Source: Escherichia coli (GTDB lineage: Bacteria > Pseudomonadota > Gammaproteobacteria > Enterobacterales > Enterobacteriaceae). From it: a stretch of 64,000 nt of DNA. The position numbers were made by a program. Location: NCBI RefSeq assembly GCF_022846255.1, contig NZ_AP025682.1, one strand, 5' to 3'. Below, one piece after another: positions 26,701 to 32,700 of this stretch; positions within the stretch are counted from its first letter, which is position 1; each line of letters opens with the position of its first letter.

Positions 26701-29700
26701 CAAAAACGGCAGCCGCATCGTCCGCCAGTGCGGCGGCGTCATCGGCATCATCTGCGTCTGCTTCAAAAGATGAGGCGACCAGACAGGCGTCAGCAGCGAA
26801 GGACAGTGCCACGACGGCATCCACGAAGGCGACAGAGGCTGCTGGCAGTGCGACGGCGGCAGCACAGAGCAAAAGTACGGCAGAATCCGCCGCAACGCGC
26901 GCTGAGACAGCAGCAAAACGGGCAGAGGATATTGCATCCGCCGTGGCGCTTGAGGATGCAAGCACGACGAAAAAGGGGGTAGTACAGCTCAGCAGTGCGA
27001 CCAACAGCACTTCCGAGTCACTGGCGGCAACGCCAAAAGCCGTTAAGGCCGCGTATGACCTGGCTAACGGGAAATATACCGCTCAGGACGCTACGACAGC
27101 ACAAAAAGGAATTGTCCAGCTCAGTAGTGCAACCAACAGCGCATCTGAAACGCTTGCTGCGACATCGAAAGCAGTGAAAGCAGCTAATGACAATGCGAAT
27201 GGTCGGGTACCTTCTGCCCGTAAGGTGAATGGTAAGGCGCTTTCAGCGGATATAACACTGACACCGAAAGATATTGGTACGCTTAACTCAACAACTATGT
27301 CATTCAGCGGTGGTGCTGGTTGGTTCAAATTAGCAACGGTAACCATGCCGCAGGCGAGTTCTGTTGTTTCAATTACGTTGATTGGTGGGGCTGGATATAA
27401 CGTCGGTTCACCTCAACAGGCAGGTATATCTGAACTTGTTTTGCGTGCAGGTAATGGTAATCCGAAGGGGATTACTGGTGCTTTATGGCAGCGCACATCG
27501 GCAGGGTTTACAAATTTTGCCTGGGTCAATACATCTGGTGATACTTACGATATTTACGTTGCAATCGGAAATTATGCGACTGGTGTAAATATTCAATGGG
27601 ATTATACCAGTAATGCCAGCGTAACGATTCATACGTCACCAGCATATTCTGCTAATAAGCCGGAAGGGTTAACGGACGGTACAGTTTATTCACTCTATAC
27701 GCCATCAGAGCAGTTTTATCCGCCTGGCGCACCAATCCCGTGGCCATCGGATACCGTTCCGTCTGGTTATGCCCTGATGCAGGGGCAGACTTTTGACAAA
27801 TCTGCCTACCCGAAACTTGCAGTCGCTTATCCGTCAGGCGTGATCCCTGATATGCGTGGCTGGACGATTAAGGGCAAGCCCGCCAGTGGTCGTGCCGTAT
27901 TGTCTCAGGAGCAGGACGGCATTAAATCGCACACCCACAGCGCCAGCGCATCCAGTACGGATATGGGTACGAAAACCACATCGTCGTTTGATTACGGCAC
28001 TAAATCCACGAATAACACCGGGGCGCATACGCACAGTCTGAGCGGCTCTACAAGCTCGGCCGGAGCACACTCGCACGTTGATGGTCGCAGGTTTAATACA
28101 AGCACTTTTAAAGACACCTATCAGTATGGTTCTACAGCTGTCGGAAGTAACTCATACCAGGTACAAGGGGCGGTTGGTCTGGGCATTGGCACGATGGCGA
28201 ATACGAACTCTGCTGGCGCGCATACCCACTCACTGTCCGGCACTGCTGCAAGCGCAGGTGCACACGCACATACTGTCGGTATTGGTGCTCATACGCACTC
28301 CGTTGCGATTGGCTCACATGGACACACCATCACCGTTAACGCTGCTGGTAACGCGGAAAACACCGTCAAAAACATCGCATTTAACTATATTGTGAGGCTT
28401 GCATAATGGCATTCAGAATGAGTGAACAAGCACGGACCATAAAAATTTATAATCTGCTGGCCGGAACTAATGAATTTATTGGTGAAGGTGACGCATATAT
28501 TCCGCCTCATACAGGTCTGCCAGCAAACAGTACCGATATTGCACCACCAGATATTCCTGCTGGCTTTGTGGCTGTTTTCAACAGTGATGAGGCATCGTGG
28601 CATCTCGTTGAAGACCATCGGGGTAAAACGGTTTATGACGTAGCGTCAGGGGACGAGTTATTTATTTCTGAACTCGGTCCGTTACCGGAAAATGTTACCT
28701 GGTTATCGCCGGAAGGGGAGTTTCAGAAGTGGAACGGCACAGCCTGGGTGAAAGATGCAGAAGCAGAAAAACTGTTCCGGATCCGGGAGGCGGAAGAAAC
28801 AAAAAACAGCCTGATGCAGGTAGCCAGTGAGCATATTGCGCCACTTCAGGATGCTGTAGATCTGGAAATCGCAACGGAGGAAGAAACCTCATTGCTGGAA
28901 GCCTGGAAAAAGTATCGGGTGTTGCTGAACCGTGTTGATACATCAACTGCACCTGATATTGAGTGGCCTACGAACCCTGTCAGGGAGTAATCATTGGGAT
29001 TATGCCGCAGCACGTCTTAAGCAAGAACGTGCTGCGGTTGGATGCTATTTTTTCCCTGAAGCGGAAAACATTACTACAGTACCTTGAACCTTGGTTTTAA
29101 CATTCTCGAAATGCTCTGAGAGTATATGTGTTAAGCCTTCTTCGGAATCTTTTGTGTTTGAAAAGATGCCTTTCTGATTGTAAATGCGCATCAGTTTTTG
29201 ACCGAAGCTATTGTGCACAACTCCATCGCCAAGAATTGTGGCTCCGTATAGAGTTCCATCGTCAGTTAAGGCCTGCGCCGCATTGCGTATTACACAGCTT
29301 TTTGTAGATATATTTCCAGGCAGACAGTGAAGAAGGTAAAACATGGAAATGGAATCAAATTGACCATGTAACGCCGCGGGATAAGGTTCAAAAACATCAT
29401 GGTTAATTTTATGTTTAATTTTTGATTCCCCAGCCCTTGTAGATGCCGCGTTCAGGCTAGCTTCGTTCAAATCCATTAAAGATATCAGACTACTCTCAGG
29501 TACGTGAGTAAGGTAAAACCCAGTTCCAACACCAATATCCAGATGGTTGTTACCTAAATGTTCCAGAAAGTGTGGAAGAAGGTGTTCCTTTGTAGGACAT
29601 CCCCATGCAAGCCGATTTGATACTCCCAAAACCCACCAGTCATAAAGCTTTAGGGTAAGTGGTGTGTAAATTTTAGCCCCATCATCTGTGTTTTTTTTCA

Positions 29701-32700
29701 TTAATTTCACCATGTTATAGTTTTATTTGTGAATTAAATCAATTATGGCGATGAATTACAAGGGGTTAAATGCTGCCGCAGCATAGCGATATTGAAATAG
29801 CCTGGTATGCTTCGATACAGCAGGAGCCGAATGGCTGGAAGACCGTCACCACACAGTTCTACATCCAGGAATTCAGTGAGTATATTGCGCCACTGCAGGA
29901 TGCTGTAGATCTGGAAATCGCAACGGAGGAAGAAAGATCGTTGCTGGAGGCATGGAATAAATATCGGGTGTTGCTGAACCGTGTTGATACATCAACTGCA
30001 CCTGATATTGAGTGGCCGGAAGAACCAGACACAATGTAAGCGAAAAAGAAAAACCGCAGACACGACGTATGCAGGACGTGCTGCGGTTGGCTGGTGAACT
30101 TTCGATAGTGCGAGTATTGAATGATTTCCAGCCGTTACCGATTTTACGTATTTTTTGTATGGGAGGATTTGCATCTCCTCCCACCGATCCTCCATGACTT
30201 TACGCCACAGTCTCTAGGACTGCTATGTGCCAATAGCAGACATCCACACAATTATGTAAAATAGGCTAGTGAGTCAGCATTCATGTAGTTCAGACCATCT
30301 ATAGCTGAAATCACGATCGCTTAACAGTGATTCACTCATAACTGCTAGCGAGCAATGTTCTTGTTTGAACCTCAAATTGAAACCACAAAATCGAAAGGTT
30401 AAATAATCGATTATCCAAATAGAAGGCAATTCAATGGGAAATCACGATTTTATTAAATATATTATATTATTTGGCTTGTCTGGGATAATGTTGGCTATGC
30501 TAGTGCTCTTTATTTCCTCTGTAGCATATTATTTTTTCACCCATAATAAAGGAGTTCTTCAGTATATAATTAAAACTATTTCCATAGGCCTTGTAACTAT
30601 TCCAGTCGCAATAATACTAATCGTTGCACTCGTCCATTATGTTGTCTGGCAAAAAGGGATTTCAACGGCATGGCGTTTTATATTCCACTCGACTAAAACA
30701 ACAACCGTGAATGATATTGCTAATGCTGAATCAGAAGATGTTATTGTTCACCTTGTTCATGGAACATTCGAGACGAATGCATCTTGGACACAACCTGAGT
30801 CAAAAATGTGCAAATCAATTAACTCAAGGAATCCCAATATTGGTATATCTCGATTTAAATGGGATGGCAAAAACTCTGCATCCTCTCGTAAACAAGCGGC
30901 ATATCAATTAGGAATGCATATTGATAACTCTCCTGCAAAATACAATTATATTATTGCACATAGCCATGGGGCAGCTATTGTAAGAGAAATGTCTTATTTA
31001 CGAAGTGATATTGCAAAAAAAATTCAAGGCGTATGTCTTTTGTCACCACCGTTCATCTTTCGACGTAGGATAAAAAGAACGTCAGGTACTTTAATTAATC
31101 TTATTGATATTAGCGGAACTTTGGCCATTCAATTGTTACTTGCAGCACTTTTTGTACCTTTGAATCTATATAATATTAATTATGCAGCAGTAATTTTTTT
31201 TGTTTCAATATTTGCAGAAATTATAATCTCCAAAAAATATAAAAAAGAATTTTTGCAGGAAGTTGAGAGTGGCGAGCACTGTGAAGCGGTTGATTTTAGG
31301 AATGTTGAAATTTATCACGCAATTGGTGATGAAGCCGATTCAGGCCTAAGATTTGTAAGTTCACTTCACGAAGGATGTTTTTCAATTCTTTCCCAGCTAA
31401 AAAAAGCTCAAGTAAGTCATAAAAAGCTAACACATTGGTCAGCAGTTTTAAGCTACCTATTTTATATTTCCATGAGTGTATTAATATGGTTCTTCTATCC
31501 TGAAGAAAAATCATGGATTATAGTATTATTAGTAAGCTTTGTATTAACTTCTATTTCTCACATTTGGCAAAGGTTGAAACCATCAAAGGATGTTCCTCAT
31601 GTTTTACTTATTGCAGCAATACCAGTTGCGATTTTTTCATTTTGGTTGGCTGTAGCTAAGGCCATAGCTTATGGAGATTTGCGATTAATATTTTGCCCGG
31701 AAGTTTTTATTGCATCATCTGAAACTCCAGCTGGAGATCATAAAGTTATTAAATTTGCTCCACAGAATGATGGTATATTAATACACTCAACACACTCGCA
31801 TCCGGAGGCTATAATTAATGTTTCTGAATGGTTATATTGCTCTGAGAATAAAAGGGTAAATGGTGAACCATAGATTAATATAACCACCATAAATTAATTT
31901 GTAATATACTTCCCTGCTAAATTCGCAGGGGAGTATAAAAATATACTAACTCAGTGGAGTCTTGTGCTGAGTTAGTACATGTTAACAAGATATTTATTCA
32001 CCACTAAATAATTAGCTAGAACAATAAGAATAATTTTGGGCAGTAAAGACAGGATGTAAACTACACTTATTCCAGTATGTTGGTTATCGTAGTTATATAT
32101 GATGAGCTCTAAAGTCCGCTTCTCGCTCATAACAGACATTCACTACAGTTATAGTAGAAGGTATGCATGCTGAGTGGGGAAAGTGTGAAAGAAAAGAAGA
32201 CTGCTGCGTCGTTTGTCGTCACGTTTATCTTCATTGGTTATGCAAGTAGTAATACAAGATGGGACAAAACTGAGGCACACATAGCTTTGTACTGGATTGC
32301 TAGGCTTTGTGCTCTTCGATAGTGGTTAAGGTGGATCACTCCACCTTTTCATCAATCCAGTCCGCCCACCATTGCATCATTTCTCTGCGTTTATCGAGAT
32401 ACTGAGCATGGTTGTAAATCCCACGCACAGATCCGCCGTTGGCATGTGCCAGTTGCACTTCAATAGCGTCAGCAGGCCATTCGTGCTCGTTCATAATTGT
32501 GCTGAATTCATGCCTGAATCCGTGACCGCTTTCCAGACCCTCATAGCCGATTTGTTTGATCACAAGCAATACCGCGTTCTCGCAGATTGGCTTCTTCTTA
32601 TCGTTGCGCCCGGCAAAAACAAACTCTGATACTGGTTTAGTGATGGAGCTTAGCGTAGTGAGAAGTTCAACCACCTGGTCTGACATAGGAACAACATGAA

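Follow-up and report, generated by a model that had tools for sequence, protein, structure and literature searches.

The 3' end of a tail-fibre assembly gene (tfa) occurs twice, in direct orientation, on the two sides of a methyltransferase gene in the window, i.e. the whole 64,000-nt stretch of Escherichia coli DNA that was analysed and to which all positions refer. In our judgement, this arrangement is in all probability a mosaic scar beside a moron, which was formed at a single illegitimate joint, was later spread by homologous exchange, and lies in the cargo zone that directly follows the tail-fibre genes in a lambdoid prophage inserted at argW.

The full-length tfa gene (28406..28990, + strand, 194 aa) encodes a tail-fibre assembly chaperone, as judged from its matches to phrog_105 (tail fiber assembly, E 2.9e-101) and to the Pfam model Caudo_TAP (residues 72-191, covering model positions 1-130), and its counterparts in matching E. 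coli genomes and phages are annotated as tail fiber assembly protein. It is the last gene of a late tail-fibre module that includes J (21463-24846), lom (24914-25513) and stf (25572-28406). Tfa proteins are modular: a variable N-terminal fibre-binding domain is joined to a conserved C-terminal trimerisation domain (PMC9608196). In agreement with this design, several Tfa PHROG families (105, 188, 136, 3792 and 5572) match the last 55-60 residues only. The end of the prophage at argW is marked by an IntS-like tyrosine integrase gene (32336-33529, - strand) together with tRNA-Arg(CCT) (33655-33729, - strand), which form the end block 32336..33729. Between intS and the module that contains the second of the two hairpins described below lies an additional low-GC insertion (30157..32262, + strand, 32-37% GC) with a 479-aa ORF (30434-31873) that gave weak Ser-hydrolase Pfam matches only. 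The insertion is missing from the argW prophage ends of the E2348/69 type, while one complete E. coli genome contains it (99.6% match). A search of NCBIfam gave no match for Tfa, for the 479-aa ORF or for the 89-aa ORF that contains the second tfa copy.

A repeat search returned two copies of a 155-nt direct repeat with 92% identity and a spacing of 1049 nt: copy A (28814..28968, + strand) and copy B (29863..30017, + strand), which bracket the methyltransferase gene. Alignment of the copies showed that identity is near-perfect from about 28824/29873 (CAGTGAG) to 28968/30017. Copy A is the part of tfa that codes for the conserved C-terminal domain (about residues 137-187), and copy B is a 5'-truncated tfa remnant. 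At the protein level, 48 of 60 residues are identical between Tfa residues 132-191 and residues 27-86 of the 89-aa ORF, and within the repeat the alignment contains, by eye, roughly eight differences, five of which are synonymous. The sequence-only reading of this DNA had placed the duplicated tfa 3' end at 28838-28975 and 29881-30030, which was right within about 15 nt, and had quoted the Tfa C-terminal peptide correctly; the pairwise alignment that it had proposed as a check confirmed the duplication.

Each copy is followed by a related hairpin, again in line with that reading. Hairpin A (29004..29038; -28.6 kcal/mol, z -4.3) is located between the convergent tfa (+) and methyltransferase (-) genes, and hairpin B is found at 30052..30088 (-22.1 kcal/mol, z -2.5). 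A further repeat with this 1049-nt offset (29024-29044 and 30073-30093, 21 nt, 90% identity) spans the 3' arm of each hairpin. The sequence ACGTGCTGCGGTTGG, which ends each hairpin, is found exactly at 29027 and 30076 and has no other exact match in the 64 kb, where the chance expectation is 0.28 matches at up to two mismatches. Because a simple terminator scan called no site at either hairpin, the hairpins were judged by folding instead. Hairpin A folds stably but lacks a U-tract on the strand of the methyltransferase gene. In hairpin B, read on the minus strand, the stem is followed by UUUUUCUUUUU, and the two together are predicted to be a canonical intrinsic terminator for leftward transcripts. 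The two hairpins are homologous versions of a putative terminator located between tfa and whatever gene converges on it. Hairpin A always adjoins the 3' end of the methyltransferase gene in related loci, at least positions 37-76 of tail A (the sequence that follows the upstream copy) being kept in 83 of 84 cassette copies (84 loci). Hairpin B is part of a conserved module (30051-30156), which in other prophages (L085-L088) lies immediately ahead of dinI or intS.

The cargo gene, or moron, encodes a class I SAM-dependent methyltransferase (29045..29713, - strand; Pfam Methyltransf_12/23/25; phrog_2132, E 2.7e-156) homologous to K-12 ybcY. The similarity to DNA methyltransferase families expected of a DNA methyltransferase or restriction-modification cargo was not found: its Pfam matches are to generic class I methyltransferase domains only, and among solved structures the closest are those of small-molecule O-methyltransferases, e.g. 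UbiG and juvenile-hormone acid methyltransferase (E about 1e-3). In PADLOC, the sole match for the methyltransferase was marginal (mad2, E 7e-4), and no convincing defence assignment resulted for it, the chimeric protein, the 479-aa protein or orfN; our search of the literature on ybcY and tfaX returned only genome-wide promoter mapping and regulator papers, and no functional study. The GC content is about 41% over 29100-29850, as against 50-55% in the tail genes, including stf. Among 76 copies of the gene, the variant sites comprise 24 synonymous, 16 nonsynonymous and 0 stop changes. Its 5' end faces a divergent intergenic region (29714..29769) in which a consensus scan detected promoter-like hexamers on the minus strand, TTAACC-16-CATAAT; this match, at the level of consensus only, would make a putative promoter for the methyltransferase gene. 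In K-12, an RpoD-holoenzyme SELEX peak and H-NS binding have been reported between ybcY and tfaX (PMC3946193).

On the other side of this region, copy B belongs to a chimeric 89-aa ORF (29770..30039, + strand; phrog_2341, E 6e-60), which is homologous to K-12 tfaX. Its first 37 codons (29770-29880) derive from a family of small phage ORFs, hereafter orfN, and codons 38-89 correspond to Tfa residues 143-194. The sequence-only reading had described a fusion to 38 unrelated codons with their own RBS: the 37-38 N-terminal codons do not align with tfa, and AAGGGG is indeed present 4 nt 5' of the ATG, but the first 37 codons, along with the start and the RBS, are those of the orfN family. Residues 3-37 also match phrog_3893, and an exhaustive HMMER search showed that proteins P0040-P0043 (55-117 aa) share this N-terminal part only and then diverge; in Citrobacter and in phage Ayreon, orfN is not fused to tfa. 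No full-length Tfa-like parent containing the 38 N-terminal codons was found, the exhaustive search giving the small orfN family only and a word-indexed search with these codons giving short fragments only. The 89-aa ORF covers positions 75-130 of the 131 of the Caudo_TAP model, and thus represents part of the domain, without the fibre-binding N-terminal region.

The joint between orfN and tfa (orfN codon 37, tfa codon 143) was found at the identical position in 82 of the 82 copies examined, which argues for a single illegitimate (non-homologous) event. A microhomology of a few bases (CAGG/CAGTGAG) perhaps helped to make the joint. The earlier proposal that the duplication is the scar of homologous recombination therefore holds in so far as the locus is a recombination scar and the repeats exchange, but not as regards the origin of the duplication, where the joint fixed in 82 copies points to a non-homologous event.

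Of 5426 complete E. coli genomes, 3797 contain the unit comprising 29000-29900, joint included, with at least 95% identity and in up to four copies per genome; in all, these complete genomes contain 4957 cassette copies. The hairpin-methyltransferase-joint unit was also found in the cultured lambdoid phages PhiR26_1, 2G7b and ev243. The comparison with other prophages that the sequence-only reading had called for showed the same methyltransferase unit both in the K-12 prophage DLP12 and in these 3797 genomes. We then scored the upstream side on 84 cassette copies in 84 loci and distinguished at least five classes: a full tfa (27 copies), a 5'-truncated tfa (3), the hairpin only (14), and tfa remnants that start at repeat position 15 (n=5), 41 (n=20) or 63 (n=15). 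Unrelated genes precede these remnants, and no Tfa ORF contains them. As for the downstream copy, A-like or B-like SNPs were found combined with tail B, with an A-like tail or with at least four other tails, making at least six different 3' tails. These mosaic combinations of SNPs and tails, together with the several upstream junctions, support later homologous exchange, and bear out the suggestion that the repeats could allow further cassette exchange.

A cassette-free allele (full tfa, tail B, hairpin B, dinI) was found in 430 genomes. The presence or absence of the methyltransferase gene is therefore polymorphic at a fixed position (430 genomes without, 3797 with), as is expected of a lambdoid-phage moron. 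Deletion of the methyltransferase gene through the repeats, as also suggested from the sequence, is plausible: gene-free alleles do exist in those 430 genomes, but none is demonstrably an A/B product. Indeed, neither a full-length tfa carrying the copy-B SNP cluster nor an A/B hybrid deletion product, in which the copy-B SNP cluster would follow an A-type 5' part of tfa, was found in the 5426 genomes (best match, 96.5%), and phage Ayreon lost its methyltransferase gene by an internal deletion (breakpoints 29080|29740) in which the repeats were not used.

These observations can be accommodated as follows. Most likely, two phage genomes underwent a single illegitimate recombination that gave rise to the duplication. 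One of them, the left parent, would have carried stf, tfaA, hairpin A, the methyltransferase gene and the small divergent gene orfN; the other, the right parent, would have contributed tfaB and hairpin B together with its own right arm. Crossing over at orfN codon 37 and tfaB codon 143 would have kept tfaA and the methyltransferase gene intact, while leaving the redundant 3' end of tfaB in frame behind the start and RBS of orfN, as a dead-end remnant. The retained piece codes for the conserved C-terminal helical domain; as this domain is shared by many Tfa families, the piece would be homologous to nearly every resident tfa. By single homologous crossovers in one copy or the other, the cassette would then have moved to new left and right genome arms, and further illegitimate joints would have trimmed the upstream copy. 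This order of events is deduced from present-day arrangements rather than from a dated phylogeny. Since no full-length tfa with the copy-B SNP cluster was found, either the tfaB parent is unsampled or copy B diverged after its truncation.

The homologous recombination proposed in the sequence-only reading would, as the origin of the duplication, amount to a Campbell-type insertion, i.e. a crossover between a circular or linear cassette of about 1049 bp (tfa 3' end, hairpin A, methyltransferase gene and orfN') and the 3' end of a resident tfa, which would double the homology on both sides, with excision by the reverse reaction. We regard this as improbable. As an insertion of this type would predict, the upstream copy is always followed by the cassette's own tail A and hairpin A and the downstream copy by the tail of the resident allele; cassette-free alleles with the same downstream sequence are common, and it could well be the route by which this particular prophage gained an already formed cassette. 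However, it leaves the origin of the duplication unexplained, since the cassette already holds the non-homologous orfN|tfa joint, whose position is fixed everywhere. Moreover, the expected excision product, an A/B hybrid full-length tfa, is the very product that was not found in the 5426 genomes, the sole demonstrated loss of the methyltransferase gene, that of Ayreon, occurred at other breakpoints, and single crossovers between co-resident phage genomes yield equal products without a circular intermediate.

A second alternative to the single illegitimate joint is that the chimeric, TfaX-like protein is the product of a functional gene under selection and that the repeat is maintained for this product; the trimerisation domain of the Tfa C-terminus, on its own, might for instance modulate or poison the assembly of tail fibres. 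The ORF has a start codon and the AAGGGG RBS, it has a PHROG family of its own (phrog_2341), K-12 TfaX is now listed as a protein by RefSeq, and the reported SELEX promoter peak lies between ybcY and tfaX. Besides, 71 of 82 copies (about 87%) keep the frame open over 86 codons or more, and most of the changes that separate copy A from copy B are synonymous, so that some selection on the chimeric ORF is possible. By contrast, 11 of the 82 copies are truncated by a nonsense or frameshift mutation, including K-12 tfaX, which at 61 aa is devoid of most of the Tfa part, and in 14 more the Tfa C-terminus is replaced by read-through into unrelated sequence. Variants in the orfN part comprise 10 nonsynonymous and 2 stop changes versus 7 synonymous ones. 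As for the start and RBS, the ORF simply took them over from orfN; the fibre-binding N-terminal domain is missing, and a synonymous bias is expected if the divergence of the copies is older than the truncation. On its variation pattern the chimeric ORF looks weakly constrained; we infer that it is functionless, and consider a repeat maintained for its product quite unlikely. It is very doubtful, too, that the chimera is a decoy which, expressed from the prophage, forms mixed oligomers with the Tfa of its own or of a superinfecting lambdoid phage and thereby modulates or sabotages side-tail-fibre assembly. If true, this would account for the persistence of an open frame in most of the about 5000 E. 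coli copies.

We also rejected, as highly improbable, the reading of the repeated unit as two copies of a small-RNA gene (Rfam IS009). The full RF02111 model matches 28749-28947 (copy A) with 229.5 bits, where the gathering score is 117, and RF02111 also matches 29793-29996 (copy B) at 115.4 bits, just below this threshold because the 5' third of the latter region is orfN sequence; the family also matches K-12 tfaD. However, what RF02111 matches is tfa coding sequence: the hit falls within the intact tfa frame and on its coding strand, it begins about 65 nt 5' of the repeat boundary, and conservation follows the codons. An EHEC RNA-seq/Ribo-seq study left IS009 out of its ncRNA analysis, among the RNAs expected to bear ribosome footprints. 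Finally, although in some related loci the upstream tfa remnant is joined to a degenerate serine recombinase gene resembling pin, and the argW prophages of other strains carry pinE and inverted tfa genes, there is next to no chance that the repeats are crossover sites of a tail-fibre switch of the Gin/Cin/Pin type, which was rejected on the grounds that they are direct rather than inverted, that no alternative fibre tip is encoded between them, and that 24-34 kb contains no serine recombinase ORF, the terminal integrase being the only recombinase encoded.

The arrangement is already annotated in K-12, as tfaD-ybcY-tfaX in the cryptic lambdoid prophage DLP12, and is an ordinary mosaic scar of low novelty. 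DLP12 displays the same gene order, orientation, hairpin and orfN|tfa joint, with segments of 88-99% nucleotide identity. By contrast, tfaD is 5'-truncated, ybcY is a pseudogene and the 61-aa tfaX has another 3' tail in K-12, whereas the window has three intact frames, with tail B and hairpin B behind the downstream copy. Lambdoid morons, studied by Hendrix, Juhala and colleagues, are additional genes that sit between conserved ones and bring a promoter and a terminator of their own. The methyltransferase gene resembles them in its polymorphism at a fixed position, its lower GC content, its location on the opposite strand, the promoter-like sequence upstream and the hairpin downstream; unlike other morons, it travels with a flanking gene-fragment remnant. 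Tail-fibre and tfa genes are exchanged horizontally and are mosaic among unrelated phages such as P2, Mu, P1, lambda and T4. The likeness here is that the region coding for the Tfa C-terminus serves as shared homology and that several unrelated fibre modules located upstream are spliced onto tfa 3' remnants; the difference is that these are stacked, non-functional 3' remnants in direct orientation and not alternative functional fibre tips.

The main value of the finding is for annotation: at such loci, "TfaX-like tail fiber assembly protein" calls designate a gene-fusion remnant, and Rfam "IS009" calls designate tfa coding sequence. Neither this point nor the spread of the moron changes the current understanding of phage mosaicism; what the locus shows is how one methyltransferase moron, with tfa homology kept on both sides, reached about 70% of E. 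coli genomes.

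The window contains a lambdoid prophage in which J (21463-24846), lom and stf (25572-28406) are followed by tfa (28406-28990). Beyond tfa lie a 222-aa ORF on the minus strand (29045-29713), hereafter the methyltransferase, which carries class I SAM-methyltransferase Pfam domains and matches phrog_2132; an 89-aa ORF (29770-30039); a 479-aa ORF on the plus strand (30434-31873); an IntS-like integrase gene on the minus strand (32336-33529); and tRNA-Arg(CCT) (33655-33729), after which come the chromosomal genes yfdC, mlaA and fadL. Other prophages also have the integrase at the tail-fibre end, e.g. 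in the order tfa-dinI-int-dusA, so that the tfa-int interval is a cargo zone of this phage type. In stf, the N-terminal half (25975-27010) is rich in Ala and Ser and gives rise to long spurious ORFs of 335, 311 and 235 aa in the other frames, on either strand.

A repeat search, a pairwise alignment and folding confirmed the sequence-only reading that the tfa 3' end and its hairpin occur twice, in the same orientation, around the methyltransferase. The direct repeat comprises two 155-nt copies (copy A, 28814-28968; copy B, 29863-30017, within the 89-aa ORF) with 92% identity, and a second repeat of 21 nt (90%; 29024-29044 and 30073-30093) has the same 1049-nt register. In the alignment, identity is near-perfect from CAGTGAG (28824/29873) to TGGCC (28968/30017); the following ~55 nt, i.e. 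the last Tfa codons and the stop, have diverged, and identity returns in the hairpin, where ACGTGCTGCGGTTGG has its only two exact occurrences in the window, at 29027 and 30076. The predicted folding energies are -28.6 kcal/mol (z -4.3) for hairpin A (29004-29038) and -22.1 kcal/mol (z -2.5) for hairpin B (30052-30088). On the minus strand, hairpin B consists of a stem and then UUUUUCUUUUU, a predicted intrinsic terminator of the textbook kind. The module that contains it (30051-30156) stands immediately before intS or dinI in other prophages, and hairpin B would therefore serve the convergent pair tfa/int or tfa/dinI. Hairpin A has the corresponding position between tfa and the methyltransferase, which it always abuts in related loci. 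As judged from their sequences, the two hairpins are homologous versions of one predicted terminator, which explains the arm common to both.

The 38 codons fused to copy B had been described as unrelated and provided with their own RBS. They are indeed unrelated to tfa, to which the first 37-38 codons of the 89-aa ORF do not align, and they have an identifiable source. The ORF forms its own PHROGs family (phrog_2341), residues 3-37 match phrog_3893 too, and Caudo_TAP covers only model positions 75-130 of 131, as against 1-130 in full Tfa. Exhaustive HMMER searching with these 38 residues as query retrieved small proteins (P0040-P0043, 55-117 aa) that have the N-terminal part in common with the 89-aa ORF and then an unrelated continuation; the homology stops at residue 37, the exact start of Tfa homology. 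In a Citrobacter contig, an ORF of this family (orfN) adjoins dinI, not the methyltransferase, and in phage Ayreon orfN is not fused to tfa. Because the N-terminal part exists in separate small ORFs and is unfused in Ayreon, the 89-aa ORF is, on sequence grounds, a chimera: orfN contributes the start, the RBS and 37 codons, and Tfa residues 143-194 follow.

Eighty IMG/VR contigs and four annotated records provided the 84 loci, with 84 cassette copies, that were compared. The orfN-tfa junction falls at one and the same position in all aligned loci, as well as in the 82 copies with a readable ORF, which points to a single founding event; since orfN and tfa are non-homologous, the joint would be illegitimate. 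Near it the partners have in common only CAGG...CAGTGAG-like bases, suggestive of microhomology. The upstream side of the cassette varies: there is a full-length tfa in 27 copies, a 5'-truncated tfa in 3, a tfa remnant beginning at repeat position 15, 41 or 63 in 5, 20 and 15, respectively, and the hairpin only in 14. The remnants lie within no Tfa reading frame, and the genes 5' of them are unrelated (a membrane protein downstream of another fibre set, a degenerate pin-like recombinase, others). In the simplest history, a phage with one tfa allele (tfaA), hairpin A, the methyltransferase and orfN would have recombined illegitimately into the middle of another phage's tfaB, creating the duplication, and later fibre-module replacements would repeatedly have spliced new left arms into the upstream tfa 3' end. 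The duplication is thus a scar, and one active in exchange, as proposed, but its origin would be illegitimate rather than homologous. Some IMG/VR contigs (L009, L010, L022) bear extra cargo between the full tfa and the hairpin-methyltransferase unit, either a serine recombinase or a three-ORF block (168, 168 and 296 aa; YciE/YciF-like and Mn-catalase-like as judged by eye), and L022 and L071 have a second methyltransferase cassette within ~5 kb.

Further cassette exchange, also proposed, is supported by the downstream copy. In the window, copy B combines a B-type SNP cluster with its own 3' sequence (tail B); elsewhere, tail B follows A-like SNPs, B-like SNPs are joined to an A-like tail, or one of at least four other tails departs from the repeat at positions 116-139, a mosaic that would be a sign of homologous recombination by the repeats. 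The comparison with other prophages yielded several upstream junctions, mosaic downstream copies and cassette-free alleles. The repeated piece codes for a C-terminal region common to several Tfa PHROG families; Tfa is modular, with a conserved C-terminal helical trimerisation domain and a variable N-terminal domain that binds the fibre (PMC9608196). The repeat therefore offers natural homology to phages that otherwise differ: with a crossover in the upstream copy the cassette would gain a new left arm, and with one in the downstream copy a new right arm.

Deletion of the methyltransferase through the repeats would be plausible. A constructed sequence for the deletion product (the 5' part of tfa, then copy B, tail B, hairpin B and 56 nt) had full-length, unbroken matches in 430 genomes, among them strains 219 and ACN002, where tfa is directly followed by hairpin B and dinI. 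However, the repeat of these cassette-free alleles is A-like, and the collection contained no complete tfa bearing the B-type SNP cluster (best match 96.5%), so the cassette may never have been in them at all. A loss is unambiguous only in Ayreon, and there the repeats were not used: window positions 28845-29080 are joined directly to 29740-29856, and the methyltransferase is gone except for its last 11 codons. This fossil in a cultured lambdoid phage (MF807953.1, 3749-4097) includes a remnant of the tfa 3' end and hairpin A; the final 36 nt of the methyltransferase are fused there to the sequence upstream of orfN, which itself has 32 codons; Stf is annotated 'side tail fiber protein' and a nearby intact tfa is absent.

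Variant sites in 76 methyltransferase copies (24 synonymous, 16 nonsynonymous, no stops; expected synonymous fraction 0.22) show purifying selection; the protein has no recognisable likeness to a DNA methyltransferase or defence gene. In the orfN part of the chimera the variants are 7 synonymous, 10 nonsynonymous and 2 nonsense, the 89-aa ORF is truncated in 11 of 82 copies, K-12 tfaX (61 aa) among them, and in 14 further copies read-through into unrelated sequence replaces the Tfa C-terminus. These data fit a tolerated remnant, although the chimeric ORF could conceivably have a function. Rfam IS009 (RF02111) matches copy A (28749-28947, 229.5 bits) and, just under the threshold of 117, copy B (29793-29996, 115.4 bits), but a small RNA was rejected because what it matches is the coding strand of the 3' half of tfa, as also in K-12 tfaD; IS009 is probably a model of coding or pseudogene sequence, not of a structured RNA, and a published study left it out of its ncRNA analysis among RNAs expected to carry ribosome footprints. 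An invertible segment was dismissed, as the repeats have the same orientation and no invertase gene lies between 24 and 34 kb.

Between the hairpin-B module and intS lies a 2.1-kb insertion of very low GC (32-37%; 30157-32262), matched at 99.6% in only one complete E. coli genome, TB06052; the 479-aa protein has several hydrophobic stretches, an AHSHG motif and weak Ser-hydrolase Pfam matches, and none in NCBIfam, PHROGs or PADLOC. The right end (the module plus intS and argW, 32263-33729) is conserved (loci L087 and L088); it recurs at argW in myovirus-like prophages (baseplate J, pinE, inverted tfa genes) of E2348/69 and other strains, so that unrelated phage types share a terminal module. 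From intS to fadL (32263-36000), identity to the best complete E. coli genomes is ~95-97%; no genome of that collection covers the whole of 28300-30500 or 30040-33800.

At least 80% of 28300-30500 is covered in 370 of 5426 complete E. coli genomes, and the core unit (hairpin A, methyltransferase and junction; 29000-29900) is found at ≥95% identity in 3797 of them, in up to four copies per genome. K-12 DLP12 has tfaD, ybcY (an opposite-strand methyltransferase pseudogene) and tfaX in the same order, with the same junction sequence, and the cultured phages PhiR26_1, 2G7b and ev243 have the same arrangement. The feature is ordinary, very widespread and already annotated lambdoid prophage mosaicism.
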